Assembly: GCF_016900875.1 (NCBI RefSeq)
Contig: NZ_JAFEUM010000001.1
Coordinates: forward strand, 235,241-275,240
From: Vibrio ulleungensis
GTDB lineage: Bacteria > Pseudomonadota > Gammaproteobacteria > Enterobacterales > Vibrionaceae
DNA length: 40,000 nucleotides
Direction: 5' to 3'
The position numbers were made by a program, and so were the translations under genes. The notes below the pieces were generated by a model. That model searched no databases. It saw only the letters and a program-made list of their open reading frames with translations, and was not told the origin of the DNA. Position 1 is the stretch's first letter. Each line of letters begins with the position of its first letter. This document shows positions 1 to 16,233 of the stretch, one piece after another.

Positions 1-1281
1 AATTAGGTTAGGGATGGCCATTAATCCGTTAACGATGTCGGCGATGATCCAAATCATATCCAATTTCATCACAGACCCAAGCGCCACCAATACGATGAAT
101 AGCACTTTAAAAGGCAGAACTGCTTTTTGGCCAAACAAGTAAACCACACAGCGCTCACCGTAGTAGTTCCAACCCAAAATAGTGGTAAAGGCAAAAAAGA
201 TAAGACCCACAGACACTAGCATTGGACCTAAGGTGTCAGAGTTGAGCCCCGTTGCAAAGGCATGCGTTGTCATCGCAGCACCGGCAAAGTCTGTTTGCCA
301 TGCACCCGTTAGGATCAGAGCCAAACCCGTCATCGTACAGATGATGATGGTATCGAAAAACGTCCCCGTCATTGAGATTAGGCCCTGCTTAACGCACGAG
401 TCGGTTTTCGCCGCTGCCGCTGCCATTGGAGCACTACCCAGACCAGATTCGTTAGAAAACACCCCGCGCGCAATACCCGATTGGATGGCCAGCATAATGC
501 TCGCCCCTAAAAAGCCGCCGCTGGCTGCTGTTGGGGTAAAGGCAGACACCAATACCAGTTGCACCGCGTCGGCCAGTTTATCGGCATTAAGCACAATCAC
601 ACTTAAACACGCCACTACATAGACAATGGCCATGGTAGGCACCACTTTAGTCGCGACTTTTGAAATAGATTGAATCCCGCCTAAGGTTACAAGCGCAACC
701 AGTAGGGTTAGCACAACCGCTGAGCCAGTGCGAGGAAGTGAGAACGTGATGCTGGCTGCATCCAAAATGGCGTTAACTTGCGGGAATGTACCAATACCAA
801 AACACGCCACACCAATAGTGAATAGAGCAAACAGGTTTGCGAGCCATTTAGAACCAACACCATCGCGCAGATAGTACATTGGCCCGCCTAGCATTTCGCC
901 TTTGCTGTCGGTTTTGCGGTACTTAACCGCGAGCAAACACTCGGCGTACTTGGTCGCCATACCAAATAAAGCGGCCAACCACATCCAAAATAGCGCACCT
1001 GGGCCACCGACTTTAATAGCGGTGGCAACACCAACGATGTTACCCGTACCAATGGTCGCCGATAATGCGGTACATAGTGCTGCGAAACTCGAGACATCAC
1101 CTTTGGCACTGCTGGAGCTAGATTTGCTAAAAACGAGTTTTAAAGCCGTAGGTAAATGGCGGATCTGAATAAGCCCAAGCTTAAACGTAAAATACGCGCC
1201 AGTGCCGACCAGTAGCAGAAGCAGGGGAGGTCCCCAAACAAAATTGTCAATTGCGAGCAGTATCGCGTGTGCATCAAGCAT
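1..1281 (-). CDS. alanine/glycine:cation symporter (AGCS family), N-terminal 427 codons; 3' end lies beyond the window start
   Basis: Absent from the ORF track because it runs off the window. Manual minus-strand translation from the ATG (complement of 1279-1281, GGAGA RBS at 1286-1290) reads MLDAHAILLAIDNFVWGPPLLLLLVGTGAYFTFKLGLIQIRHLP...ATIGTGNIVGVATAIKVGGPGALFWMWLAALFGMATKYAE, typical of AGCS transporters, and stays open to position 1. Confidence 0.9.
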   Translation of the reverse strand, partial: MLDAHAILLAIDNFVWGPPLLLLLVGTGAYFTFKLGLIQIRHLPTALKLVFSKSSSSSAKGDVSSFAALCTALSATIGTGNIVGVATAIKVGGPGALFWMWLAALFGMATKYAECLLAVKYRKTDSKGEMLGGPMYYLRDGVGSKWLANLFALFTIGVACFGIGTFPQVNAILDAASITFSLPRTGSAVVLTLLVALVTLGGIQSISKVATKVVPTMAIVYVVACLSVIVLNADKLADAVQLVLVSAFTPTAASGGFLGASIMLAIQSGIARGVFSNESGLGSAPMAAAAAKTDSCVKQGLISMTGTFFDTIIICTMTGLALILTGAWQTDFAGAAMTTHAFATGLNSDTLGPMLVSVGLIFFAFTTILGWNYYGERCVVYLFGQKAVLPFKVLFIVLVALGSVMKLDMIWIIADIVNGLMAIPNLI

Positions 1282-6164: not shown

Positions 6165-6194
6165 AAAGCCTCGCAGTCGCGGGGCTTTATTTTA
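6165..6194. terminator. bidirectional rho-independent terminator shared by convergent gnd and intI
   Basis: Stem AAAGCCTCGC (6165-6174) pairs with GCGGGGCTTT (6179-6188) with one G-T wobble and loop AGTC. An A-run lies before and a T-rich run (ATTTTAT) after. The intI stop codon (6187-6189) lies inside the right arm. Confidence 0.7.
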
Positions 6195-7146
6195 TGTCGT
6201 CTAAAGGGCTTCTGGCGCCAGCAAAATGGGTACCCAGTACATGGGTATAAATTTGGGTAGTAGAAACATCGGTATGGCCTAACAATTCTTGCACCGTTCG
6301 AATATCTTTGCCATTTCTAAGTAACTCGGTCGCGAAGCTATGGCGAAAGGTATGACAATGGATCCGCTTGTGGCCAAACCCACAGGCATTCACCGCTTTC
6401 TTCAGTGCTTTTCTTGCCGCAGAGTCGCTGAGGTGGTGTCGGCATAAAACCCCTGTATAAGGGTGTAGACACAACCCAACAGATGGAAAAATATACATCC
6501 AACTTAGCTGCTTATATGCGTGTGGGTATTTTCGATCGAGCGCATAGGGAAGCGATGGTCCAACATTTTGTTTATTGTCTCTAATTTGTAGCGCTTTCGC
6601 TTGGGAAATCAATGCCGAAACCTCGGGTTCAAGATGCTGACTTAGTAGTGTTTTGCGATCTTTTTTCCCTTTTCCATCATGGACAGTAAGGGCGCAAGCC
6701 TCAAAATCAAAGTCCATCACCCTTAACCTAAGCCCCTCGTTCACCCGCAGTCCTGATCCATATAGCAAAGAAAAAAGCGTGCGAAATTTACCATCACTCG
6801 CCTCAATAAGTTGCTTTACCTCCATAGGAGTGAGGACACTCGGTATCTTCCTAGGCGATTTTGCATGATGAAAACCCAAATCTCCCAACGGCTTATTGAG
6901 GTGTTGGTTGTATAAATAGGCTAGCGCATTGAGAGCCAGTTTTTGAGTGCCAATGGCAACACATTTCTGATTGGCAAGGTACGATAGAAATGTTTCAACC
7001 TCTTTTGCGCCCATCTCACTGGGGTGTCGAAACTTGTGAAACCGAATAAAGTAGGTGATCCAATACAGATAGCTTTTTTCTGTTTTAAGCGCATACCCAC
7101 GCAGTCGCATTCCTTGCTTCACTTCACTTAGAAATTCGCTTGCCAT
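6187..7146 (-). CDS. intI: integron integrase (tyrosine recombinase, IntI family)
   Basis: 319 aa with RLRGYALKTEKSYLYWI at the N-terminus. Catalytic motifs SGLRVNEGLRLR, HTFRHSFAT and LGHTDVSTTQIYTHV are present. The IntI-specific insertion LPYALDRKYPHAYKQLSWMYIFPS is present. It is divergent from an array of attC-bounded cassettes. Confidence 0.95.
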   Translation of the reverse strand: MASEFLSEVKQGMRLRGYALKTEKSYLYWITYFIRFHKFRHPSEMGAKEVETFLSYLANQKCVAIGTQKLALNALAYLYNQHLNKPLGDLGFHHAKSPRKIPSVLTPMEVKQLIEASDGKFRTLFSLLYGSGLRVNEGLRLRVMDFDFEACALTVHDGKGKKDRKTLLSQHLEPEVSALISQAKALQIRDNKQNVGPSLPYALDRKYPHAYKQLSWMYIFPSVGLCLHPYTGVLCRHHLSDSAARKALKKAVNACGFGHKRIHCHTFRHSFATELLRNGKDIRTVQELLGHTDVSTTQIYTHVLGTHFAGARSPLDDIK

Positions 7147-7303: not shown

Positions 7304-7392
7304 GATGAGTTAATAGGAAACCTATTAGCAGGCTATGAGTCCCGACGGTATCGTGTGGGTTAGTGGGAACGCCTACTAATAAGCTGTTATGG
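7283..7392 (+). other. attI region with putative crossover at G7386/TT
   Basis: GTTATGG at 7386-7392 is the first GTT-type core between intI and the first cassette ORF. Three TAATAGG motifs lie upstream (7283, 7311, and inverted at 7321). The exact extent is inferred. Confidence 0.5.
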
Positions 7393-7414
7393 CTCGCCTA
7401 ACCGTTTGCTAAGG

Positions 7415-7801
7415 ATGACTAACTTGGATTTAGAAAAACTGATCATTGAAAAAGAGCTTTCTCTATTAACCTTTGAGGTAAGGCATAGTGAAAGCGCGTT
7501 GAAATCATTGCTATCATCTGAGTTCTTAGAAGTTGGTGCATCAGGAGATTATTTCGGGTTACCAGAAGTATTGAACGAACTGCCGATTCAAAATAACTGG
7601 AAATGCCATGCACAAGATTTTAAGTTTCGAAAGTTGGATGAGAATATTGCTCAGTTAATTTTTAGAGCACATATTACAACTCGCGATAATGTGGTCGGGG
7701 CATATTCTCGTCGTACTTCAATTTGGAGACTAGAAGTGGACGGCTGGAAAATGGTTTATCATCAAGGAACTAAAGTAGATAAATTTGAGCTAAAGCCATA
7801 A
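7415..7801 (+). CDS. cassette 1: NTF2-like / DUF4440-like protein (128 aa)
   Basis: The pattern LSSEFLEVGASGDYF...SIWRLEVDGWKMVYHQGTKV resembles the SnoaL/NTF2 fold family. The first ATG is at 7415; the track starts at the TTG at 7406. No good RBS precedes either start. Confidence 0.65.
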   Translation: MTNLDLEKLIIEKELSLLTFEVRHSESALKSLLSSEFLEVGASGDYFGLPEVLNELPIQNNWKCHAQDFKFRKLDENIAQLIFRAHITTRDNVVGAYSRRTSIWRLEVDGWKMVYHQGTKVDKFELKP

Positions 7802-7893
7802 CAAGGCGCTCAAGACGGATTCGTAAACGCTGGCTGAACTCGCTTCGCTCAGACATAGCCAACGTTCACTCACCGCTTAGGTTAGCGTTATAT
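7798..7893 (+). repeat. attC 1 (96 bp)
   Basis: ATAACAAGGCGCTCAAGACGGATTCG...CTCACCGCTTAGGTTAGCGTTATAT. The R'' ATAAC overlaps the stop codon and the R' GTTATAT is at 7887-7893. The two arms are imperfectly complementary. Confidence 0.85.
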
Positions 7894-7959
7894 GCTCAAG
7901 AGTTAGAAGCTCTCACGGCATACTTAACTTAAGAGAATTGAAATTAGATTAAGATATAC

Positions 7960-8310
7960 ATGACAAGAAGGCACGATAAATACAGTGAATACTTTAGAGT
8001 TCAAACTAATGTTTTGTTCTTTTGCGCATTCCCTATGATTTTGGCTTTATTAGAGTACCCAGAAAGAGAAGGTGGTATTTCGCTGTTGCTTATGTCTATA
8101 TTTTGTATTGCATTTGGTTTTACATCTGAAATGCGACGGTTGTGGATTAAGCATAAAAAGTATAGGTATAAAGCCGTTATCTTAGTGACAATTGGAATTG
8201 TGCTATTTTATTCCACTAACTACTTAGTATCGTTTAGTTTCTTCATATTATCTTCTGTGTACTTGGGTTTAAATTCAGTGAAATGTACTAGGGAGTTAGA
8301 TGAAGAGTGA
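7960..8310 (+). CDS. cassette 2: small integral membrane protein (116 aa)
   Basis: Three to four hydrophobic segments (VLFFCAFPMILALL, ISLLLMSIFCIAFGF, AVILVTIGIVLFY, LVSFSFFILSSVYLGL). AT-rich. No family recognised. Confidence 0.6.
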   Translation: MTRRHDKYSEYFRVQTNVLFFCAFPMILALLEYPEREGGISLLLMSIFCIAFGFTSEMRRLWIKHKKYRYKAVILVTIGIVLFYSTNYLVSFSFFILSSVYLGLNSVKCTRELDEE

Positions 8311-8316
8311 ACGCAT

Positions 8317-8410
8317 ATAACAAAGCAATTAAGTCGGATTCCATACGCGTGCCGACTCGCTTACGCTCAAACATAGCACGCGTATGTCACCGCTTATTGC
8401 GGCGTTAGCT
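8317..8410 (+). repeat. attC 2 (94 bp)
   Basis: ATAACAAAGCAATTAAGTCGGATTCCATACGCGTGCCGACTCGCTTACGCTCAAACATAGCACGCGTATGTCACCGCTTATTGCGGCGTTAGCT. Confidence 0.9.
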
Positions 8411-8425
8411 GTCACGGAGAAGATA

Positions 8426-9061
8426 ATGCGTAATCTAATTGTACTAGTCTTATTGACGATTATCCCATGTATGGCTTTTTCACAGGCCGATTACGGTAGT
8501 TATGTAGGCACAGTAAAAACCGAATGGATGCGAGGTTCAGAATCTGAGCGTCGTATGGTTTTGTTAGAAGATTTTGTTTATATCGACCCCAAAGGAAAAA
8601 AATGGATAGCTCCTGCCGGAAGTAAGACTGATGGGGCAACAATTCCCAAAGTGGTCTGGACGTTTGTAGGTGGTCCATATGCTGGTCAATATCGTGAAGC
8701 TGCCGTAATTCACGATGTGTACTGCGATACAAAATCAGAACCTTATAGAGATGTCCATCGAATATTTTACTATGCAAATCGTGCTGCTGGAGTCTCTGAG
8801 AAGAAAGCAAAAATCCTATACGGAGGCGTAATGATAGGTGGCCCCAAATGGGGAAGTAAAGAATCAAATTGTTATAGCTGTCACAGTACCGGAAGCACAA
8901 AAATGGAAAAGGACAATAATGGGCAGCTAACAGCATTCCCCCCAGTAACAGAAGATGATGTAAAAATGCTCGCTGAGTTTGTCAACAGTAAGAACCCAAC
9001 GTTAGAACAGATAGATGCTTACATTGAAAAAGTGCATCCAGCTAGCAAATTTGGGCACTAG
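8426..9061 (+). CDS. cassette 3: secreted protein, DUF1353-like (211 aa)
   Basis: Signal peptide MRNLIVLVLLTIIPCMAFSQA. The core KWIAPAGSKTDGATIPKVVW...AAVIHDVYCD matches the TDG-x-S/T-IP plus HD pattern I associate with DUF1353. Start moved to the ATG at 8426 (GGAGA RBS); the track start at 8384 lies inside attC 2. Confidence 0.65.
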   Translation: MRNLIVLVLLTIIPCMAFSQADYGSYVGTVKTEWMRGSESERRMVLLEDFVYIDPKGKKWIAPAGSKTDGATIPKVVWTFVGGPYAGQYREAAVIHDVYCDTKSEPYRDVHRIFYYANRAAGVSEKKAKILYGGVMIGGPKWGSKESNCYSCHSTGSTKMEKDNNGQLTAFPPVTEDDVKMLAEFVNSKNPTLEQIDAYIEKVHPASKFGH

Positions 9062-9070
9062 ATGGAACAG

Positions 9071-9143
9071 CTAACAAGTCAATCAACTTCGCGCCTTCGG
9101 CGCCGGACACAGCAAAGCTGCGCCGGTTATTGAGGCGTTATAT
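9071..9143 (+). repeat. attC 3 (73 bp, short class)
   Basis: CTAACAAGTCAATCAACTTCGCGCCTTCGGCGCCGGACACAGCAAAGCTGCGCCGGTTATTGAGGCGTTATAT, with a central GCGCC/GGCGC hairpin. Confidence 0.8.
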
Positions 9144-9161
9144 GGTTCAAGGAGTAACCGT

Positions 9162-9737
9162 TTGAATAATTGGAATTCCGTAGCAAATACAGTGCAGTTT
9201 AACCTTGAAATATCCACTAAAGATCTAATGGATCATGCTCCAATTGGTTCAAATATCCTTGATTTCGGTTGTGGCTATGGGCGAATATCAAATCAATTGT
9301 ATTCTCTGGGCTATCGCAAAATTGTCGGTGTTGATAGTTCTGAAAAAATGATTAATCGAGGGAGTTTCGACTTTCCCCATTTGGATTTACGATTTTCAAA
9401 TGCGGATACCTTGCCATTTCCAGACGCTAAGTTCGATGTTGTTTTTACGTGTGCAGTTTTTACGTGTATTGACCAGTTAGAAAAAAGGCAGCGTATATTT
9501 GACGAACTAGTTCGTGTGACTAAACCAAATGGTATTATTTACATTGCTGAATTTAGCTCGCCACAAAGCTCCAAGTTTCTCTCCGGCCAAGGTGTGCCAA
9601 TGTGGCATAGTAGTCATCATGAACTTGAAGAACTTGCTAGCAATTTAGTAATTGAACTATCGCGGTTAACTGACACGAATACGATGACAGGGCATAAGAG
9701 TAGTGCAAGCCACATAATTGCGCGAAAAACCATATAA
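9162..9737 (+). CDS. cassette 4: class I SAM-dependent methyltransferase (191 aa)
   Basis: ILDFGCGYGR motif I and VVFTCAVFTCI...PNGIIYIAEF post-motifs. TTG start 7 nt after the AAGGAG at 9149-9154. Confidence 0.8.
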   Translation: MNNWNSVANTVQFNLEISTKDLMDHAPIGSNILDFGCGYGRISNQLYSLGYRKIVGVDSSEKMINRGSFDFPHLDLRFSNADTLPFPDAKFDVVFTCAVFTCIDQLEKRQRIFDELVRVTKPNGIIYIAEFSSPQSSKFLSGQGVPMWHSSHHELEELASNLVIELSRLTDTNTMTGHKSSASHIIARKTI

Positions 9738-9827
9738 CAAAAAGTTTAAGATGGATTCCATACGCGTGCCGACTCGCTTACGCTCAAACATGGCACACGT
9801 ATTTCACCACTTAACTTGGCGTTAGTT
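9734..9827 (+). repeat. attC 4 (94 bp)
   Basis: ATAACAAAAAGTTTAAGATGGATTCCATACGCGTGCCGACTCGCTTACGCTCAAACATGGCACACGTATTTCACCACTTAACTTGGCGTTAGTT. The central roughly 45 nt are nearly identical to attC 2. Confidence 0.9.
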
Positions 9828-9848
9828 GCTAATTGGAAAGGTTTCGAT

Positions 9849-10091
9849 ATGGATGATCTAATAAATGCAGTGCTTAGAATTTTTGGTGCTGCTATTAAAT
9901 TTGTTCTTGAGATAAGAGTCGTTGAACTTTTCTTCTATGGTGTTGGTTTTGTGGTATCCAAAACCTTTACGTTAGGAAAGTATCCTTCCAAAGAATCTGA
10001 CAAAATTAAGGTCAATTATATTGGATTAATTACCGTGGTATTTTGTCTCATTGCAATTGGTATTTTCAATACTTCGCAACGAATAACCTAA
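9849..10091 (+). CDS. cassette 5: small two-TM membrane protein (80 aa)
   Basis: The in-frame ATG at 9849 is the first start outside attC 4. Hydrophobic segments are VVELFFYGVGFVV and LITVVFCLIAIGIF. Confidence 0.5.
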   Translation: MDDLINAVLRIFGAAIKFVLEIRVVELFFYGVGFVVSKTFTLGKYPSKESDKIKVNYIGLITVVFCLIAIGIFNTSQRIT

Positions 10092-10099
10092 CTGCGCAA

Positions 10100-10196
10100 C
10101 TAACAAGGCGCTTAAGTCTGATTCGTGAACGCGTGCCATTTTCGCTTCGCTCTAATTCTGGAACACTTTCACTCACAGCTTAGCTTGGCGTTAGAA
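10100..10196 (+). repeat. attC 5 (97 bp)
   Basis: CTAACAAGGCGCTTAAGTCTGATTCGTGAACGCGTGCCATTTTCGCTTCGCTC...CTCACAGCTTAGCTTGGCGTTAGAA. Confidence 0.85.
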
Positions 10197-10210
10197 GTTA
10201 CCGAGGAGAT

Positions 10211-10663
10211 ATGGCTAACAGAAGAGAGCTTGGTAGCCTCGCAAGTGGAATCGTAGGCTCATTTAATAGCAGGAACAATGATGTCGACGGCTATTGGGGA
10301 ATAGGCAAACTCTATAAATTTGTCGAGTTCGCTCATGAGAAAGTGGTTGAGTTGGATCTTCTAGCGTCCTCTACAGCACCACCCACACATGAATTCGACA
10401 CAATGTTGGCGTTCTATCGCGATATGCTACTTAACCTGCTGAGGAAACGATCAATTCCTAAGGGCTGGGTAAAGTCCGCGAAGGTTGTCGTTCGCTTTGA
10501 GGCGAAGTTTCAGCAAGAGCACCATTTCTTCCGCTCTGCTATAGGTCAACCTTGCCAGGTTGAGTGTTACATAGTTGATGACTTTGGGAGTCGGCACATC
10601 GCATATGCCTATAACTATTGCCGTCCGCACGACCCGCAGGTGGAAACGAGGAGTTGCCGTTGA
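10211..10663 (+). CDS. cassette 6: orphan protein (150 aa)
   Basis: GAGGAG RBS at 10203-10208 and ATG at 10211. No motif recognised. The ORF fills the cassette. Confidence 0.6.
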   Translation: MANRRELGSLASGIVGSFNSRNNDVDGYWGIGKLYKFVEFAHEKVVELDLLASSTAPPTHEFDTMLAFYRDMLLNLLRKRSIPKGWVKSAKVVVRFEAKFQQEHHFFRSAIGQPCQVECYIVDDFGSRHIAYAYNYCRPHDPQVETRSCR

Positions 10664-10671
10664 AGCAACTT

Positions 10672-10752
10672 CTAACAAGGCGCTCAACCGGACGCCAAAA
10701 GTCGCGCTTCGCGCTACAGCACTTTTGCCGCCGGTTAGCTTAAGCGTTATGC
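10672..10752 (+). repeat. attC 6 (81 bp)
   Basis: CTAACAAGGCGCTCAACCGGACGCCAAAAGTCGCGCTTCGCGCTACAGCACTTTTGCCGCCGGTTAGCTTAAGCGTTATGC. Confidence 0.8.
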
Positions 10753-10759
10753 TACCTAT

Positions 10760-10788
10760 TTGATATCAGGACTAAAGTTAGGTAATTT
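10760..10788 (+). promoter_or_regulatory. candidate cassette-internal promoter for cassette 7
   Basis: TTGATA (10760-10765), a 17-nt spacer, then TAATTT (10783-10788), inside an unusually long 72-nt leader between attC 6 and the ATG at 10825. The -10 is weak. Confidence 0.3.
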
Positions 10789-10824
10789 AAAACATCATTT
10801 ATCGCAATATAGCAGGAGCTATTA

Positions 10825-11385
10825 ATGAAATTTGTGTTTGTGGACGCAGAGAACGTTGGAGTGAAAGGAATCGAGCGAGTAAAAGCTACGCTAGCTGATA
10901 AAGTTTTTGTTTTTTCCAAATCAAATAGTATTCAGCAACATTGTGAAAAAGAGCTTTTCCATCATCTTTCTGACTACCCTAGTGGTCAAAACCAAGCTGA
11001 TTTCTATATCATTTCATACCTATCACGTGTGCTTTCAACATTGGAGCAACAAGCTCTTGCTTCTGCTCACTTTGAGCTATTTAGCAATGATGAAAGCTTA
11101 ATTTCAGCTTTCGAGTTTCAATGTAAAAAGTTAGGAGCTAAGTTCAGAGTTGTAAGAATTAAAGATGAAGTTGTCGTGCCTATTGTTGTGAACGAAAAAT
11201 CTAACTTTATATCAGCTGAACAAAAGCTATATGCGGCGTTAAAGTCACCAAAAAATCTAGACCCTAGTTTTCAAGAACAGTTGGGCTTATCCCGTCAGGC
11301 ATTTACTAAAGCGGTGAATACACTTTCTAGTAGCAATAAGATCAGACGTTCTGATACAGATAAGAAACAGTGGGTTCAGTGCTAG
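10825..11385 (+). CDS. cassette 7: NYN/PIN-like domain protein with C-terminal HTH-like tail (186 aa)
   Basis: MKFVFVDAENVG, NQADFYIISYL and ELFSNDESLISAFEFQCKKLGAKFRVV reproduce the D-x-x-N, AD and S-x-D spacing of NYN (LabA-like) nucleases. The C-terminus QEQLGLSRQAFTKAVNTLSSSNKI looks like an HTH. The assignment is by eye only. Confidence 0.6.
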   Translation: MKFVFVDAENVGVKGIERVKATLADKVFVFSKSNSIQQHCEKELFHHLSDYPSGQNQADFYIISYLSRVLSTLEQQALASAHFELFSNDESLISAFEFQCKKLGAKFRVVRIKDEVVVPIVVNEKSNFISAEQKLYAALKSPKNLDPSFQEQLGLSRQAFTKAVNTLSSSNKIRRSDTDKKQWVQC

Positions 11386-11392
11386 CGATAGC

Positions 11393-11518
11393 ATAACAAA
11401 GCATTCAAGAGTGATTCCCAACGAATAGCATTTTTCATTCCATCGTTGGGTTTTGTGTCTATGGCGGCATGGTTAAGTTCCATGGTAGCGTTGCTCACCC
11501 CTTAATGCGGCGTTATAC
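11393..11518 (+). repeat. attC 7 (126 bp, long class)
   Basis: ATAACAAAGCATTCAAGAGTGATTCCCAACGAATAGCATTTTT...GTAGCGTTGCTCACCCCTTAATGCGGCGTTATAC. Confidence 0.9.
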
Positions 11519-11534
11519 ATATGGAAGGCTCAAG

Positions 11535-12041
11535 ATGAAAGATGAAATTGAAGGTTTGAAAAGGAAGAAACTTGAGATACTACTCTTGAGCGTAATTATC
11601 CCAATAATAGTGAGCGCTGTTACATATTGGGCTACTAAATTTTTAGAACGTCCGGAGTGTGCTGAGCAGTCGCCATTATCTCTTGAAGTGCAAAATAGTT
11701 TTAATAGGCTTAATTATCATGGTTTTGTACTTTCTGGGAATGAACAGAAATATGAGGATTTTTTTGCTTCGATGAGGATGTTCCAAGACAATTTAGGCGG
11801 GGAAAGCAAACATTTGCACAGTATTGCTGCGTATTTATCTAATGAGGTTAGTAAAGCTCGTATTTATATGGAAACTAATAATTCCTCGGAATTGACACCA
11901 GAGCAATTGCATATATTAAGCAAGGCTAGAATCGAGTTTGACGCTGTTGTCCAAGCTTTATCATGCGGATACTCAATTGGTAAGGATGAGTGTTCGATCT
12001 GTTTTGGGGTTGACCCATCAATAGATTACAGTCCCCGGTAG
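11535..12041 (+). CDS. cassette 8: N-terminally membrane-anchored protein (168 aa)
   Basis: The ATG at 11535 is the first start outside attC 7 (GGAAGG at 11523). There is a basic N-terminus, then the TM segment LEILLLSVIIPIIVSAVTYWATKFL, then a soluble helical-looking domain. No family recognised. Confidence 0.6.
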   Translation: MKDEIEGLKRKKLEILLLSVIIPIIVSAVTYWATKFLERPECAEQSPLSLEVQNSFNRLNYHGFVLSGNEQKYEDFFASMRMFQDNLGGESKHLHSIAAYLSNEVSKARIYMETNNSSELTPEQLHILSKARIEFDAVVQALSCGYSIGKDECSICFGVDPSIDYSPR

Positions 12042-12047
12042 ATATGT

Positions 12048-12170
12048 ATAACAAAATGTTTAAGAGGGATTCGCAACGCGTGGCATTTTTACTATGCGTT
12101 GATTTTTGTGTTTAAGGTGGTTGCGGCAACATCGGTATTGCGTTGCTCACCCCTTAACATGGCGTTATGT
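12048..12170 (+). repeat. attC 8 (123 bp, long class)
   Basis: ATAACAAAATGTTTAAGAGGGATTCGCAACGCGTGGCATTTTT...TTGCGTTGCTCACCCCTTAACATGGCGTTATGT. Confidence 0.9.
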
Positions 12171-12197
12171 GCTAGTGAGAAATTTGAGGATAGAAGT

Positions 12198-12551
12198 ATG
12201 AAATATGCCCCAATTAAAGATGAAATTACGTTTGATGACTTCTCTAAAATTGATATTCGAGTTGGTTTAATCGAAGAGGTATCTGAAGTAGCTAAATCTG
12301 ACAAACTAATGAAGTTAACAGTAGACTTTGGTGACCATAAGCGCTCGATTTTAGCTGGTATAAAACAAGAGCGTGAAAACCCGAAAGAGATAGAGGGTAA
12401 GCAAGCTTTGTTTGTGGTGAATTTGCCAGAAAGAAAAATGGTAGGTGAAGTATCTCAAGGTATGTTGTTCGACATTGGCTATGAAGATAAGTTACAACCA
12501 TGCTTAGCTTGCCCAGAATCAGAAATGCCTAATGGCGCTAGAGCTGGGTAG
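12198..12551 (+). CDS. cassette 9: tRNA-binding domain protein (CsaA/YgjH-like, 117 aa)
   Basis: FSKIDIRVGLIEEVSEVAKSDKLMKLTVDFG...ALFVVNLPERKMVGEVSQGML matches the OB-fold tRNA-binding (EMAP/CsaA) pattern. ATG at 12198 after the GAGGA at 12186. Confidence 0.8.
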   Translation: MKYAPIKDEITFDDFSKIDIRVGLIEEVSEVAKSDKLMKLTVDFGDHKRSILAGIKQERENPKEIEGKQALFVVNLPERKMVGEVSQGMLFDIGYEDKLQPCLACPESEMPNGARAG

Positions 12552-12556
12552 CGCAC

Positions 12557-12652
12557 ATAACAAAGCATTTAAGAGCGATTCCGTAACGTGTGCCGATTTC
12601 GCTTCGCTCAAGTGTGGCACACGTTACTCCACGCCTTAATGCGGCGTTAAAT
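12557..12652 (+). repeat. attC 9 (96 bp)
   Basis: ATAACAAAGCATTTAAGAGCGATTCCGTAACGTGTGCCGATTTCGCTTCGCTCAAGTGTGGCACACGTTACTCCACGCCTTAATGCGGCGTTAAAT. Confidence 0.9.
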
Positions 12653-12670
12653 TGCAATCGAGGATGGTGG

Positions 12671-13435
12671 ATTATTAAATTAGAAACATATGATGTGTTT
12701 GGTGGTGAGTCAGCTTCTGGTAACCCTTGTGGTGTATTAGAGCTTGATAATTGGCTTTCTGATGAAGAGTTACAGAAAATAACTTGTGAAGCAGGACTTC
12801 CAGTTACCTCTTTTGTTATTAAAATTAATGGACAGTTTCACATTCGCTGGTTTGCGCTGGATGGGGAAATTAACCTGTGTGGGCATGGTAGCTTAGGGGC
12901 TGGTGCTGCAATCATCTCTAAGAACAAACTCGATCGTGTACTTTTCAGTAGCAAATACGGAGACGTCTCAATTGCCAAAAAGAATGGTATTTATACTCTT
13001 GAGTTGCCTAGTTGGAAAGGTGAAACATGTGTCGTTCCACCAGAAATAGCGGATTTGGCTGTTGATGCTATTGATGTATTTTCAACTCGAGACTTAGTTA
13101 TAGTCTTGCCCTCAATAGAATCTGTAAGAGATTTTAAGCCTGATGATATGCGCTTTAAACAGCTTGATAATTACCATGCTTTAATCGTGACCGCAGCAAA
13201 TGGCGAAAATGGGTACGTATTAAGATATTTTGCGCCCAAAATTGGTATATCTGAAGATCTAGCGACAGGTTCCGCTCAATGCTCTTTAGCTCCATACTGG
13301 ATTGACAGGCTTAACTCAGATTCACTTCAGGTACACCAACTTTCGTCGTCAGGTGGTTATTTTGGCGTAAGGCGTATTTCAGCTGGCTCAATCGTGTTAT
13401 CAGCAAATGCAAAGCTACGGAAAATAGCAATTTAA
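12671..13435 (+). CDS. cassette 10: PhzF-family isomerase/epimerase (start codon uncertain)
   Basis: KLETYDVFGGESASGNPCGVLEL, NLCGHGSLGA and DLATGSAQCSLAPYW match PhzF-family motifs. No ATG/GTG/TTG lies between attC 9 and the conserved N-terminus. ATT at 12671 or 12674 follows the GAGGA at 12660-12664. The track start (GTG at 12590) is inside attC 9. Confidence 0.75.
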   Translation: MIKLETYDVFGGESASGNPCGVLELDNWLSDEELQKITCEAGLPVTSFVIKINGQFHIRWFALDGEINLCGHGSLGAGAAIISKNKLDRVLFSSKYGDVSIAKKNGIYTLELPSWKGETCVVPPEIADLAVDAIDVFSTRDLVIVLPSIESVRDFKPDDMRFKQLDNYHALIVTAANGENGYVLRYFAPKIGISEDLATGSAQCSLAPYWIDRLNSDSLQVHQLSSSGGYFGVRRISAGSIVLSANAKLRKIAI

Positions 13436-13526
13436 CAAAGCATTTAAGAGTGATTCGCAACGCTTGGCAGTTTCGCTTCGCTCAAGTATAGCCAAGCGCC
13501 GCTCACACCTTAATGCGGCGTTAGTT
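13432..13526 (+). repeat. attC 10 (95 bp)
   Basis: TTAACAAAGCATTTAAGAGTGATTCGCAACGCTTGGCAGTTTCGCTTCGCTCAAGTATAGCCAAGCGCCGCTCACACCTTAATGCGGCGTTAGTT. Confidence 0.9.
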
Positions 13527-13541
13527 GCCCAGCGGCTGAAA

Positions 13542-13820
13542 TTAGTTTGTCGGGAACTTCTGCTTTTGATGGAGTACACGCATGATACGAATGATCTCTA
13601 CCTCAACCCAGTACGAGACAACCATCGAAATTTCAGGAATGATCAGCAGCCTGCCTCGTATTCCATCTCGCTGAACTCCCATTAAAGGTTGCTCTAACAG
13701 GCACTCAACTTTTGACGCAATGAGGTCATCAGTTTTCTCGGCTGCTGCTGGGTTAAAGTCGTATAGAAATTCAAAAATCTTCTCACGATCATTTAGAGAT
13801 TCTTCTTCCCAGAAAATCAT
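13542..13820 (-). CDS. cassette 11: RelE/ParE-family type II toxin (92 aa)
   Basis: MIFWEEESLNDREKIFEFL...RLLIIPEISMVVSYWVEVEIIRIMRVLHQKQ follows the RelE/ParE fold pattern. There is a 4-nt ATGA overlap with the upstream antitoxin gene. The module is inverted relative to the array. Confidence 0.85.
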   Translation of the reverse strand: MIFWEEESLNDREKIFEFLYDFNPAAAEKTDDLIASKVECLLEQPLMGVQRDGIRGRLLIIPEISMVVSYWVEVEIIRIMRVLHQKQKFPTN

Positions 13821-14101
13821 TGGTTGCCACGGTCACGAATTCTTGCTTTACGCTCTGCCATTCGAGACTTTGCTGTATTGTGGTCAATAAAAACGGCTTT
13901 CCCTGAGTCATACTTCTCAAATGCTAGGTTTACCTGTTCTGTTAACCAAGCATCATGCGATAATGATTTTCTTTGTTGTTCAGCTAGTTGCTCTGTGAGT
14001 TCCCGGCAAGCATCACTAAGTGTTCGGCCTTGGCTCTCAGCCATTTGCTGTGCTAGGCGTTTGGTTTCCTCGTCAACACGAAATTGAATTCTAGTGTCCA
14101 T
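13817..14101 (-). CDS. cassette 11: RelB/DinJ-family antitoxin (94 aa)
   Basis: MDTRIQFRVDEETKRLAQQMAESQGRTLSDACRELTEQLA is a ribbon-helix-helix DinJ/RelB-type N-terminus. Start set to the ATG at 14101 (GAGGA RBS) rather than the track start at 14185. Confidence 0.8.
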   Translation of the reverse strand: MDTRIQFRVDEETKRLAQQMAESQGRTLSDACRELTEQLAEQQRKSLSHDAWLTEQVNLAFEKYDSGKAVFIDHNTAKSRMAERKARIRDRGNQ

Positions 14102-14156
14102 AATGCATTCCTCTTGTGTGTGTACAAATGTTAGCACTACGCATTGGGTCGGGCAA

Positions 14157-14266
14157 CTAACAAATTGCTTAAGAGTGACGGCCAACCTTGGGCATTTTCG
14201 GTTCGGTTGGCTTTAGTGTTTACGGTGGCATTGTTTGGGTTTCGTGGTGTTAGCAAAGCGTTAGTT
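14157..14266 (+). repeat. attC 11 (110 bp, long class)
   Basis: CTAACAAATTGCTTAAGAGTGACGGCCAACCTTGGGCATTTTCGG...GGTGTTAGCAAAGCGTTAGTT. Confidence 0.85.
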
Positions 14267-14296: not shown

Positions 14297-14329
14297 GTAC
14301 AAGTATATGAGTGAAGACTATACTTGTAC
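14297..14329. promoter_or_regulatory. yefM-yoeB operator: perfect 11-bp inverted repeat containing GTAC cores
   Basis: GTACAAGTATA (14297-14307) and TATACTTGTAC (14319-14329) are separated by 11 nt, 27 nt upstream of the yefM ATG. A further GTAC lies at 14338-14341. YefM-YoeB operators in E. coli are built on TGTACA palindromes. Confidence 0.6.
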
Positions 14330-14355
14330 CATTAAACGTACATGTTGAGGTTCTT

Positions 14356-14610
14356 ATGAGAATCGTATCTTTTACTGAAGCTAGGAATGGTCTTAAAGCT
14401 GTTTTAGACGATGTAGTTAATGACGCAGACACGACAGTCATTACACGTCGTGACTCTGAAGATGCTGTGGTTATGTCTTTAGACTACTACAACAGTCTTA
14501 TGGAGACAGTGCACTTACTACGCTCTCCTCAAAATGCTGAACACTTAAACCGCTCTATAGCGCAGTACCGTGCTGGTCAAGCAACCGCACGAGAGTTAAT
14601 TGATGAGTAG
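14356..14610 (+). CDS. yefM: cassette 12: YefM/Phd-family antitoxin (84 aa)
   Basis: MRIVSFTEARNGLKAVLDDVVNDADTTVITRRDSEDAVVMSLDYYNSLMETVHLLRSPQNAEHL is a canonical YefM sequence. ATG at 14356 after GAGG. Confidence 0.9.
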   Translation: MRIVSFTEARNGLKAVLDDVVNDADTTVITRRDSEDAVVMSLDYYNSLMETVHLLRSPQNAEHLNRSIAQYRAGQATARELIDE

Positions 14611-14872
14611 TAACCAACGTTTACTATCGTGGACTGATGAGGCTTGGGGTGACTATTTGTATTGGCAAACCCAAGATAAGAAAACACTCAAGCGCATTAA
14701 TAAGCTCATCAATGATGTTAAGCGTTCGCCTTTTGAGGGTATTGGCAAACCAGAGCCGTTAAAAGAGAACTTATCTGGTTTTTGGTCTCGCCGCATTGAC
14801 GACACTAATAGACTTGTTTACGCAGTCGATGATCAAGCGATAACAATAATTTCATGTCGCTACCACTACTAA
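14603..14872 (+). CDS. yoeB: cassette 12: YoeB-family toxin (89 aa)
   Basis: LSWTDEAWGDYLYWQTQDKKTLKRINKLINDVKRSPFEGIGKPEPLKENLSGFWSRRIDDTNRLVY...CRYHY is a canonical YoeB sequence. It overlaps the yefM 3' end by 8 nt. Confidence 0.9.
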   Translation: MSSNQRLLSWTDEAWGDYLYWQTQDKKTLKRINKLINDVKRSPFEGIGKPEPLKENLSGFWSRRIDDTNRLVYAVDDQAITIISCRYHY

Positions 14873-15465: not shown

Positions 15466-16233
15466 GTGGCTAAAAAATATTATGTTGTTTGGAAAGGACG
15501 TGAAACGGGCATTTTCACCACTTGGCCTAAGTGCAAGTCACTGGTTGATGGTTTTGCGGGTGCTCGGTATAAGTCGTTCCCAACTTTAGAAGAAGCCGAG
15601 TCTGCGTTTGGTGGTAGCTCGACTAATACCGCTGCGAGCAAAGCAATAAAGGGCGCAAGCAAGCCTAAAAAAGTAAAAGCAGCTCCGCTCACTCAGCAGC
15701 AAATTGATGCTATGGAGTATCAAGTTAAAGTCTTTACCGATGGCGCCTGCGATCCAAACCCAGGTGAAGCGGGGACTGGTCTGGCGGTGTATGACGACAA
15801 TGTATTGAGTGAGCTTTGGTATGGCCTTTACCAATCTATGGGCACAAATAATACCGCTGAGCTAAATGGTCTAAACCAAGCGCTGATCATCGCTAAAGAG
15901 AAGTTAAGCTCTGGCCAAACTGTGGGTATTTTTTGTGACTCTAAATACTCAATCGACTGCATTACCAAATGGGCCGCTGGTTGGGAGAAAAATGGTTGGA
16001 CGAAAGCGGGTGGTGAGATTAAAAACCTAGACATTATTCAACCTGCGTATGCGCTGTATCAGGAAATTGCTTCTAAGATCGCTATTCATCATGTCAACGG
16101 ACACGTGGGCATTGAGGGGAATGAGTTGGCTGACAGGATGTCTATTGTTGCTATTGATGCCAAGGACGAAAATCTGTCACGCTACCGAGAGATTGATGAT
16201 GTTCCTGCCATATTAGCGCTGCGTACGGGTTAA
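15466..16233 (+). CDS. ribonuclease H (type 1) with N-terminal hybrid-binding domain (255 aa)
   Basis: The N-terminus KKYYVVWKGRETGIFTTWPKCKSLVDGFAGARYKSFPTLEEAESAF is the HBD (dsRHbd) pattern. The catalytic DEDD set is in VFTDGAC, NNTAELNGL, IFCDSKY and GNELADRMS. GTG start after GGAGG. Confidence 0.9.
   Translation: MAKKYYVVWKGRETGIFTTWPKCKSLVDGFAGARYKSFPTLEEAESAFGGSSTNTAASKAIKGASKPKKVKAAPLTQQQIDAMEYQVKVFTDGACDPNPGEAGTGLAVYDDNVLSELWYGLYQSMGTNNTAELNGLNQALIIAKEKLSSGQTVGIFCDSKYSIDCITKWAAGWEKNGWTKAGGEIKNLDIIQPAYALYQEIASKIAIHHVNGHVGIEGNELADRMSIVAIDAKDENLSRYREIDDVPAILALRTG

Follow-up and report, generated by a model that had tools for sequence, protein, structure and literature searches.

A single-gene integron cassette of Vibrio ulleungensis encodes a predicted NYN-type PIN-like domain joined to a winged helix

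We describe here a gene cassette, termed cassette 7, that lies in a chromosomal integron array within a 40,000-nt stretch of Vibrio ulleungensis DNA (contig NZ_JAFEUM010000001.1, positions 235,241 to 275,240; the whole stretch is called the window). On structural models and analogy with characterised enzymes, cassette 7 is best read, with a probability of roughly 0.55, as a self-contained mobile gene for a two-domain nucleic-acid enzyme, consisting of a metal-dependent NYN endonuclease and a winged helix. The domain assignments themselves are well supported. Modelling shows residues 1–113 to be a minimal NYN-type PIN-like domain related to the Pfam family PIN_7, and a 58-residue basic, MarR-like winged helix follows after a flexible linker of variable length. 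The gene travels alone, without an antitoxin or other partner, in integron arrays, in tRNA-Leu islands and on a few plasmids.

The N-terminal domain

A preliminary description of cassette 7, made from the sequence alone, had proposed an NYN/PIN-like nuclease with a tail resembling a helix-turn-helix (HTH). For the N-terminal half of this proposal, fold searches, a sub-threshold match to PIN_7 and an alignment with a PIN_7 member agree. The AlphaFold2 (AF2) model of the full-length protein, with a predicted local distance difference test score (pLDDT) of 87.6, comprises five beta-alpha units, a disordered linker (residues 114–128) and a C-terminal domain. The N-terminal domain is predicted to form beta-alpha repeats with five strands, and when modelled alone it reaches a pLDDT of 94.8 and a predicted template modelling score (pTM) of 0.88. 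When this model was compared with the PDB using Foldseek, the six best matches were all NYN domains; mouse and human MARF1 gave query TM-scores (TMq) of 0.65–0.76 and root-mean-square deviations (rmsd) of 3.2–4.0 Å, and VPA0982 (2QIP) a TMq of 0.64. Lower scores go to generic Rossmann folds and the CARF proteins Cam1 and Csa3 (TMq 0.51–0.54) and to Rae1/YacP (0.51). In a library of viral structures, giant-virus proteins that combine NYN with a double-stranded RNA-binding domain rank top. With NYN domains heading the comparison, the proposed PIN/NYN-like fold stands as a structural prediction.

At the sequence level, PIN_7 (PF18475) is the sole Pfam family matched by the domain (E = 3e-6, 28.2 bits, residues 5–97). 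The same family is matched at E = 1e-3 or better by 26 of 53 relatives, none of which scores above the cassette 7 protein. At its margin, the family search also reached P0230, a protein that scores 74.4 bits for PIN_7 and is a genuine member of that family. A search seeded with P0230 returned P0230 alone, and hhalign was therefore run against this single sequence. The alignment of the 53 homologues matched it with a probability of 96% (E = 4.9e-9), and D7, D59 and D89 fell on the P0230 motifs IDVEN, NAIDF and SSD, respectively. No match of the cassette 7 protein to Pfam NYN (PF01936, LabA-like) was seen at E values up to 10; a distant relative, P0206, matches this family weakly (E = 8e-4). Searches of PDB sequences, with the protein or with a profile of its N-domain, gave no nuclease, so the link to NYN domains of the PDB is drawn from the comparison of folds only.

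The full set of invariant carboxylates and amides reads D7-x-E9-N10, N56-Q-A-D59 and N88-D89, with N88 conserved in at least 90% of the 53 homologues. The codons of the three aspartates lie at 10843–10845 (D7), 10999–11001 (D59) and 11089–11091 (D89). In the model, D7, E9, D59 and D89 are placed at the C-terminal ends of the strands formed by residues 2–7, 46–48 (plus the loop that follows) and 82–86. D7/E9, D59 and D89, after strands 1, 3 and 4, are thereby modelled in the canonical position of the Mg2+/Mn2+ site of PIN/NYN domains.

The linker and winged helix

The linker ranges from 9 to 35 residues across the family. In the tail, DSSP assignment of the model gives a helix, a short strand, two further helices and a beta hairpin (helices 131–138, 147–153 and 157–169; hairpin strands 173–175 and 182–185). 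The tail carries a net charge of +5, the family mean being +6.6 over ~58 residues, and its wing contains the invariant residues I173 and W183 as well as the almost invariant R175. Profile searches of PDB sequences matched the winged helix-turn-helix (wHTH) cores of the MarR-family proteins AdcR and ZitR (E = 4e-4 to 1e-3) and, more weakly, the winged helices of Hop2 and CvfB and the Z-alpha domain of PKZ (E = 0.1–0.6 for Z-alpha). Together, topology and MarR-core matches turn the HTH-like tail of the preliminary description into a winged helix. Only its 58-residue core aligns, to residues ~37–88 of AdcR, and MarR_2 scores 12.9 bits against a cut-off of 27. Pfam CvfB_WH is far below threshold, and OST-HTH/LOTUS (PF12872) is absent among the Pfam matches at E values up to 10. 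As modelled, the tail is a winged helix closest to binders of double-stranded DNA (dsDNA), and neither a full MarR protein nor a LOTUS domain.

Two distant family members, P0193 and P0223, carry two tandem copies of the wHTH. On one metagenomic contig (L086:156-898), a stand-alone 91-aa copy of the family wHTH (P0222) overlaps the start of a DUF6998 gene by 4 nt. The latter encodes 156 residues with a D...QxK motif reminiscent of PD-(D/E)xK nucleases, and the layout of the two genes resembles a toxin-antitoxin pair.

The affinities of the tail raise the question of whether the protein is a transcription factor, with a winged helix for operator DNA and a PIN-like domain that serves dimerisation or ligand sensing instead of catalysis, as in the layout of CARF-wHTH regulators such as Csa3. 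The best PDB sequence matches of the tail are indeed dsDNA-binding MarR repressors; Csa3 (PDB 2WTE), likewise an alpha/beta domain followed by a winged helix, is the top Foldseek match of the whole protein; and the gene tolerates its own promoter without an antitoxin, the promoter region being conserved. However, the whole-protein match to Csa3 has an rmsd of 18 Å, and with the N-domain alone Csa3 drops to rank 26 (TMq 0.51), NYN reaching 0.76 against 0.51–0.54 for CARF/Csa3. The invariant residues occupy exactly the PIN/NYN metal-ligand positions, and there would be no reason for these to be maintained in a sensor domain. The cassette holds no target gene and no palindrome was found in its leader, and the protein has neither a CARF match in Pfam nor a CRISPR context. 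We consider a purely regulatory protein distinctly unlikely.

The tail bears equally on a second alternative, in which duplex or structured DNA is the target, recognised through the winged helix and nicked or cleaved by the PIN-like domain; the protein would then be a minimal restriction-like or structure-specific DNase. The closest relatives of the tail, namely AdcR, ZitR and Hop2, bind dsDNA, and DNases, for instance those of the FEN-like group, are known within the PIN-like superfamily. Against this, RNA is the substrate of the characterised NYN-group enzymes MARF1 and Rae1/YacP, as well as of the related MCPIP1 and PRORP (PMC5499597, PMC6294520), and no methyltransferase or other self-protection partner recurs beside the gene. 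A DNA-directed nuclease thus appears decidedly improbable, though with a MarR-like tail both DNA targeting and autoregulation are open options.

Protein family and constraint

The cassette 7 protein is 100% identical to a V. ulleungensis hypothetical protein, with the UniRef name 'PIN-like domain-containing protein'. At a clustering level of 90% identity, its matches form 227 clusters, almost all of which align across the whole protein and have 180–200 residues, and an exhaustive hidden Markov model search yielded 115 representatives at E = 1e-3 or better among 1.84 billion. Judged from these searches, the family is small and isolated. Invariant in the 53 homologues are D7, E9, N10, G12, K26, F30, Y51, P52, N56, Q57, A58, D59 and F60, together with L85, D89, L92, Q99, L139, I173 and W183.

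The acidic motifs noted earlier, FVDAEN (residues 5–10), QADFYI (57–62) and SNDES (87–91), are all present with their key residues invariant, and by alignment their conservation is far beyond chance. The G-x-K motif reported alongside them exists, as G103-A-K105, but lies outside the conserved columns. The ratio of nonsynonymous to synonymous substitution rates is 0.04–0.12 across 11 gene pairs of the family, and 0.063 for cassette 7 and its closest relative, L005 (89% amino-acid identity, synonymous divergence, dS, 0.8). By this measure the gene is functional and under strong purifying selection.

Two cysteines stand out in the family alignment. Cys100 (11122–11124) is nearly invariant, and most family members have a cysteine as their last residue, which in the cassette 7 protein is C186 (11380–11382). 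These cysteines may have a structural or redox role.

Cassette boundaries and leader

In the window, the integrase gene intI is followed by plus-strand cassettes, which are separated by one family of attC repeats (repeat family D1 and a scan for arm pairing); cassette 7 is the seventh after intI (Table 1). Its recombination points lie between G10746 and T10747 and between 11512 and 11513, and the mobile unit delimited by these G/TT crossovers is 10747–11512, or 766 nt. The limits first assigned to the cassette, 10753–11518, gave the correct length from a shifted starting point, the span running from R' end to R' end. Similarly, a leader is present as described, but measured from the crossover point it is 78 nt long rather than 72 nt.

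Table 1. Coordinates of cassette 7 and associated features in the window
Feature	Position	Strand	Basis or remark
Tyrosine-recombinase gene intI	6187–7146	minus	Phage_integrase and SAM_4 domains
R' box GTTATGC of upstream attC (10673–10749)	10746–10752	+	sequence; attC arm-pairing scan
Leader, 78 nt	10747–10824	+	sequence; comparison with homologous cassettes
Candidate -35, TTGATA	10760–10765	+	sequence; TT invariant in 9-leader alignment
Candidate -10, TAATTT, 17 nt after -35	10783–10788	+	T1, A2 and T6 invariant in 9-leader alignment
Shine-Dalgarno AGGAG, 6 nt before ATG	10814–10818	+	sequence
Coding sequence, 186 aa, stop included	10825–11385	+	ATG 10825, TAG 11383–11385
N-terminal NYN-type PIN-like domain (predicted), aa 1–113	10825–11163	+	Pfam, AF2, Foldseek, hhalign
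Flexible linker, aa 114–128	11164–11208	+	pLDDT <50 for residues 114–128
C-terminal basic winged helix-turn-helix (predicted), aa 129–186	11209–11382	+	DSSP topology, profile matches
attC of cassette 7	11391–11518	+	repeat family D1, arm-pairing scan, single-strand fold, sequence
RelB-like/ParE type II toxin-antitoxin pair	13542–14185	minus	inside last cassette
Phd/YefM-YoeB toxin-antitoxin pair	14311–14872	+	just past last attC
RNase H1-type protein	15466–16233	+	Cauli_VI N-terminal domain and RNase_H; shortly after array

The attC of cassette 7 has the boxes R'' GCATAAC (11391–11397) and R' GTTATAC (11512–11518), with the crossover between G11512 and T11513. L'' GCATT[C]AAG pairs with L' CTTAATGC, leaving one extrahelical (bulged) base, and R'' pairs with R' in the centroid of the single-strand fold. 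At ~122–128 nt, this attC is among the two longest measured in the array, the others being 69–92 nt in a scan limited to 50–150 nt, in keeping with the long class to which it had been assigned. Strict RYYYAAC/GTTRRRY boxes with high thresholds missed most attC sites; a relaxed scan recovered the array, and its output is approximate. At the end of the cassette 6 attC (10673–10752) stand two R'-like boxes, GTTAGC (10734) and GTTATGC (10746), with a distance of 12 nt between them; arm alignment favours the latter as the functional one.

Homologous cassettes in other Vibrio genomes have identical boxes at both ends, GTTATGC(T/C)AC ... TAGC..TAGCATAACAA, the GTTATGC(T/C)AC start being common to L001–L005, L012 and L038. 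These shared ends indicate that cassette 7 is a real, recurrently mobilised cassette. It has one open reading frame (ORF), complementary attC boxes, G/TT boundaries, the orientation of the array and a position downstream of intI, as an integron gene cassette should, and the view of the gene as sole occupant of a bona fide cassette is upheld. No known RNA family was found by Rfam in 10600–11600, and the fold of the 5' untranslated region is no better than that of shuffled sequence (z = -1.1).

A promoter, TTGATA-17-TAATTT, had been proposed within the leader. The hexamers are there, and their key bases are conserved: leaving aside the R' box and start region, the positions without variation in nine related leaders include those of the hexamers listed in Table 1, two Ts of the spacer and one T further downstream. 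Between cassette 7 and L005, the leaders are 85% identical, whereas third codon positions of the two genes are 67% identical. In L001, the corresponding site, TTGATA-17-TAAAGT, is called by a consensus scanner (9/12), and the leader of a subgroup found in tRNA-linked islands has TTGATA-16-TAATCT. As a promoter the cassette 7 site is weak, however, and confined to one lineage. TAATTT matches TATAAT at only 3 of 6 positions. A private promoter is plausible on sequence grounds, at about even odds; the Vibrio cassette lineage would then bring its own weak sigma-70-type promoter, which could allow expression wherever the cassette sits in an array.

Whether the gene regulates itself is a guess. An inverted-repeat search gave no operator-like palindrome in this leader or in those of the closest relatives. 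By eye, TGATATCA overlaps the -35 element in this leader and is lost in L005, and GTTGATATC/GATATGCAAC shows dyad symmetry in the tRNA-island subgroup, which has a different leader.

These features of the leader are pertinent to the idea of a fused or self-regulated toxin, an addiction module in which the nuclease is the toxin, the winged helix its attached antitoxin or autorepressor, and the outcome stabilisation of the array. Vibrio arrays typically contain PIN-like toxins and toxin-antitoxin cassettes that bring promoters of their own, and two classical toxin-antitoxin pairs lie in or beside the present one (Table 1). The weak start codon TTG is used in 27 of 75 full-length homologues, and the stand-alone wHTH gene that overlaps a predicted nuclease gene could be seen as the split version of such a module. 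Nonetheless, the split arrangement is known from a single 1.2-kb contig, and the lack of an operator-like inverted repeat in this leader or its closest relative's argues against an autorepressor. Addiction needs an unstable antidote that is separate from a stable toxin, which a single polypeptide does not obviously provide. We view a fused toxin with strong doubt.

Distribution and neighbours of homologues

With each species represented by one genome, a scan gave 78 loci with homologues, in Vibrio, Aliivibrio, Photobacterium, Shewanella, Pseudoalteromonas, Moritella, Marinomonas, Stutzerimonas, Pseudomonas and other genera. About 31 of 83 loci are cassettes in arrays, a rough figure that reflects an approximate attC scan; the density of attC per kb is 0.78 at cassette loci, 0.16 elsewhere and 0.09 in shuffled sequence. 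In several cassettes, the stop codon overlaps the R'' box, the leader is 30 nt long and the start codon is TTG. In a second group, the homologue lies ~500 bp downstream of tRNA-Leu(CAA), with a P4-type integrase 2–3 kb further on and variable genes in between, including one for an Mrr-like restriction enzyme. Relatives are also found on seven plasmids.

The tRNA-Leu(CAA)-linked homologues occur in several Vibrio species (L008–L011, L013, L019 and L020; e.g. L009:3561-4000). A conserved non-coding stretch of ~300 nt separates them from the tRNA gene; it has no Rfam match and could be an island attachment remnant or an RNA. Five genomes carry two diverged copies of the gene (L029/L035, L033/L034, L020/L022, L053/L068 and L047/L082), and the two of Aliivibrio sifiae belong to one array, at a distance of 27 kb from each other.

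The description of a stand-alone gene agrees with the wider survey, in which no partner recurs. When ORFs of at least 60 aa within 4 kb were clustered, no neighbour family was present in more than 5 of 80 loci, and among ORFs of at least 25 aa within 500 nt, at 83–86 loci, there was no real small partner. The recurrent small ORFs considered as candidates proved to be antisense frames of the gene, attC DNA or tRNA DNA. Identical proteins are flanked by different neighbours in different genomes. Without a partner, the gene is not a classical toxin-antitoxin module.

This distribution bears on the idea of a single-gene anti-phage system, acting by abortive infection. Here the winged helix would sense phage nucleic acid or protein and release the nuclease on host or phage RNA. 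Small single-gene defence systems abound in integron arrays (bioRxiv 10.1101/2024.07.02.601686), and in tRNA-linked islands homologues have Mrr-like type IV restriction genes as neighbours and dnd genes nearby. Of 120 neighbours of non-cassette homologues, about 12 (~10%, a modest and uncontrolled fraction) match PADLOC models; they include type IV restriction, PbeA, SoFic, AbiEii, DarG and PDC candidates. The presence of two diverged copies in several genomes, and of no homologue in a collection of phage records, would also suit defence. On the other hand, the remaining neighbours are mixed, many of them housekeeping genes, the protein itself has no PADLOC match, and the descriptions of the 16 V. 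cholerae integron systems include no PIN or NYN protein (bioRxiv 10.1101/2024.07.02.601686). No V. cholerae homologue appeared in the homologue searches or the locus scan, and the family was therefore probably never screened. We regard an anti-phage system as unlikely, although it merits consideration.

Discussion

How the cassette 7 protein might act can be outlined from its parts. The NYN domain would be a metal-dependent endonuclease, and RNA is the more likely, default substrate by analogy, since all NYN-group enzymes characterised so far are RNases. Through its winged helix the protein would grip nucleic acid, so that the substrate is chosen or held in place; the same domain may also bind DNA at the promoter of the gene. 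Because the gene has no neutralising partner, the nuclease must be specific for its substrate, or restrained either within the polypeptide or by low expression. The distribution and architecture of the gene hint at a role in genetic conflict, e.g. defence or addiction. The preliminary description had gone further, nominating a defence or abortive-infection effector or a self-regulating toxin, and this part finds no support in the present data: there is no PADLOC match, no antitoxin-like partner and no convincing palindrome in the leader. Such a role is a reasonable hypothesis from mobility and architecture, not a finding. In a bolder version, the protein would be a one-polypeptide immune or addiction module, with an NYN RNase that is checked or targeted by its own winged helix and fires on a nucleic-acid cue of phage or stress, the private promoter keeping it armed anywhere in an array. 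This scheme is speculative, and we think it unlikely.

Several observations weigh against the reading of cassette 7 as an autonomous nuclease gene with its own promoter. The PIN_7 score of 28.2 bits is below the gathering threshold of 34 bits. The invariant acids amount to three aspartates and one glutamate only, and PIN_7 as a family was scored as having 3–4 acidic residues, '+/-' (Matelska et al. 2017, PMC5499597). The tail is nearer to dsDNA-binding MarR cores than to the RNA-binding LOTUS and CvfB domains, and for such a tail a DNA target, or a role in regulation only, is no worse a fit than RNA targeting. The candidate promoter agrees with the consensus at 8 of 12 positions and was not called by the scanner. 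Related cassettes in other genera have leaders of 30 nt, which leave no room for a promoter, so a private promoter would be a feature of one lineage and not of the family. As to function, the cassette 7 protein matched none of the families of PADLOC-DB 2.0 at E values up to 10, the phage records gave no match either, and the defence-gene neighbourhood of the non-cassette copies is suggestive and uncontrolled.

Among known proteins, the NYN domain of MARF1 (PDB 5YAA, 6FDL) is the best structural match, with a TMq of 0.76, an rmsd of 3.2 Å and a probability of 1.0. That domain is an Mn2+/Mg2+-dependent endonuclease of single-stranded RNA with a patch formed by Asp358, Asp426, Asp427 and Asp452 (PMC6294520). 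The invariant acidic residues of the cassette 7 protein are predicted at the same topological positions, and in both cases nuclease and winged-helix-type domains (LOTUS in MARF1) belong to one polypeptide. The differences are considerable: identity is only 15–17% with no match at the sequence level, MARF1 is a large eukaryotic multidomain protein, its Asp426-Asp427 pair corresponds to the single D59, and LOTUS was not detected in the cassette 7 protein. PIN_7 is nearer in sequence, being the sole Pfam match and the family in which P0230 provides counterparts to the three aspartates. It is a bacterial family of the NYN group, a 'minimized NYN variant' (Matelska et al. 2017, PMC5499597). P0230, however, aligns over the N-terminal domain only, and the wHTH is in no alignment. 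LabA-like NYN proteins, including VPA0982 and bacterial NYN-OST-HTH fusions, have the fold group in common with the cassette 7 protein, and the pairing of an NYN nuclease with an HTH-type binding domain was earlier predicted to be a stand-alone RNA-degradation system (cited in PMC5499597). Here, too, there is a difference, in that the cassette 7 protein has no Pfam NYN or OST-HTH match and its tail is MarR-like, not LOTUS.

Rae1/YacP of Bacillus subtilis (PDB 5MQ8, 5MQ9) is a small bacterial NYN endoribonuclease with a short extra domain at the C-terminus. Rae1 has ~170 residues and cleaves mRNA in a ribosome-dependent manner. Its C-terminal extension is not a winged helix, and it ranks only 50th in the fold comparison. 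Moreover, the NYN_YacP family is defined by a 'GYN' motif directly after the first conserved aspartate (PMC5499597), which is absent from the cassette 7 protein (D7-A-E-N). VapC, of the VapBC modules, shares the PIN-like superfamily and an occurrence as cassettes in Vibrio arrays; the cassette 7 protein differs in belonging to the NYN group and in having no adjacent antitoxin gene in any context.

What was already known from computational work is thus the PIN_7/NYN fold family and the general design of NYN plus an HTH-type binding domain; we found no experimental work in the literature on PIN_7 or on the NYN-wHTH architecture. Less familiar is the combination of a sub-threshold PIN_7 branch with a MarR-like winged helix, in a one-gene cassette with a conserved putative private promoter. 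Most cassettes of chromosomal integrons have no known function, and recent work indicates that many are compact defence genes. The present family moves horizontally among marine gammaproteobacteria, including populations of V. parahaemolyticus, V. vulnificus and V. harveyi, and packs a catalytic-looking NYN domain and a nucleic-acid-binding tail into 186 residues without a partner gene. If active, the protein would give the bacterial PIN_7/NYN branch its first assigned function, and would offer a very small, tractable model for the targeting or restraint of a nuclease inside a single chain. Should it show a phage or toxicity phenotype, the catalogue of defence systems would gain a new single-gene entry; should it prove to be a regulator only, the gene is an ordinary accessory one. 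While nothing here would yet surprise a specialist, the gene is a good candidate for a toxicity and phage screen.

Other features of the array

The attC-bearing array ends near 14262. All 11 attC-like sites lie within ~7.4–14.3 kb (7357–14262), and no credible attC was found in 14300–40000 by the same scan, although small co-oriented ORFs go on there. The array in the window therefore seems to hold only ~11 cassettes. Cassette 4 encodes a methyltransferase of the S-adenosylmethionine-dependent type (SAM-methyltransferase; 9162–9737), homologues of which lie no more than 4 kb from relatives of the cassette 7 gene at L035, L053 and L058; this co-occurrence, seen in three other genomes (Aliivibrio, Parashewanella), may be due to chance among common cassettes. 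Homologues of the YoeB pair found just past the last attC are also located near relatives of the cassette 7 gene, at L044 and L046.

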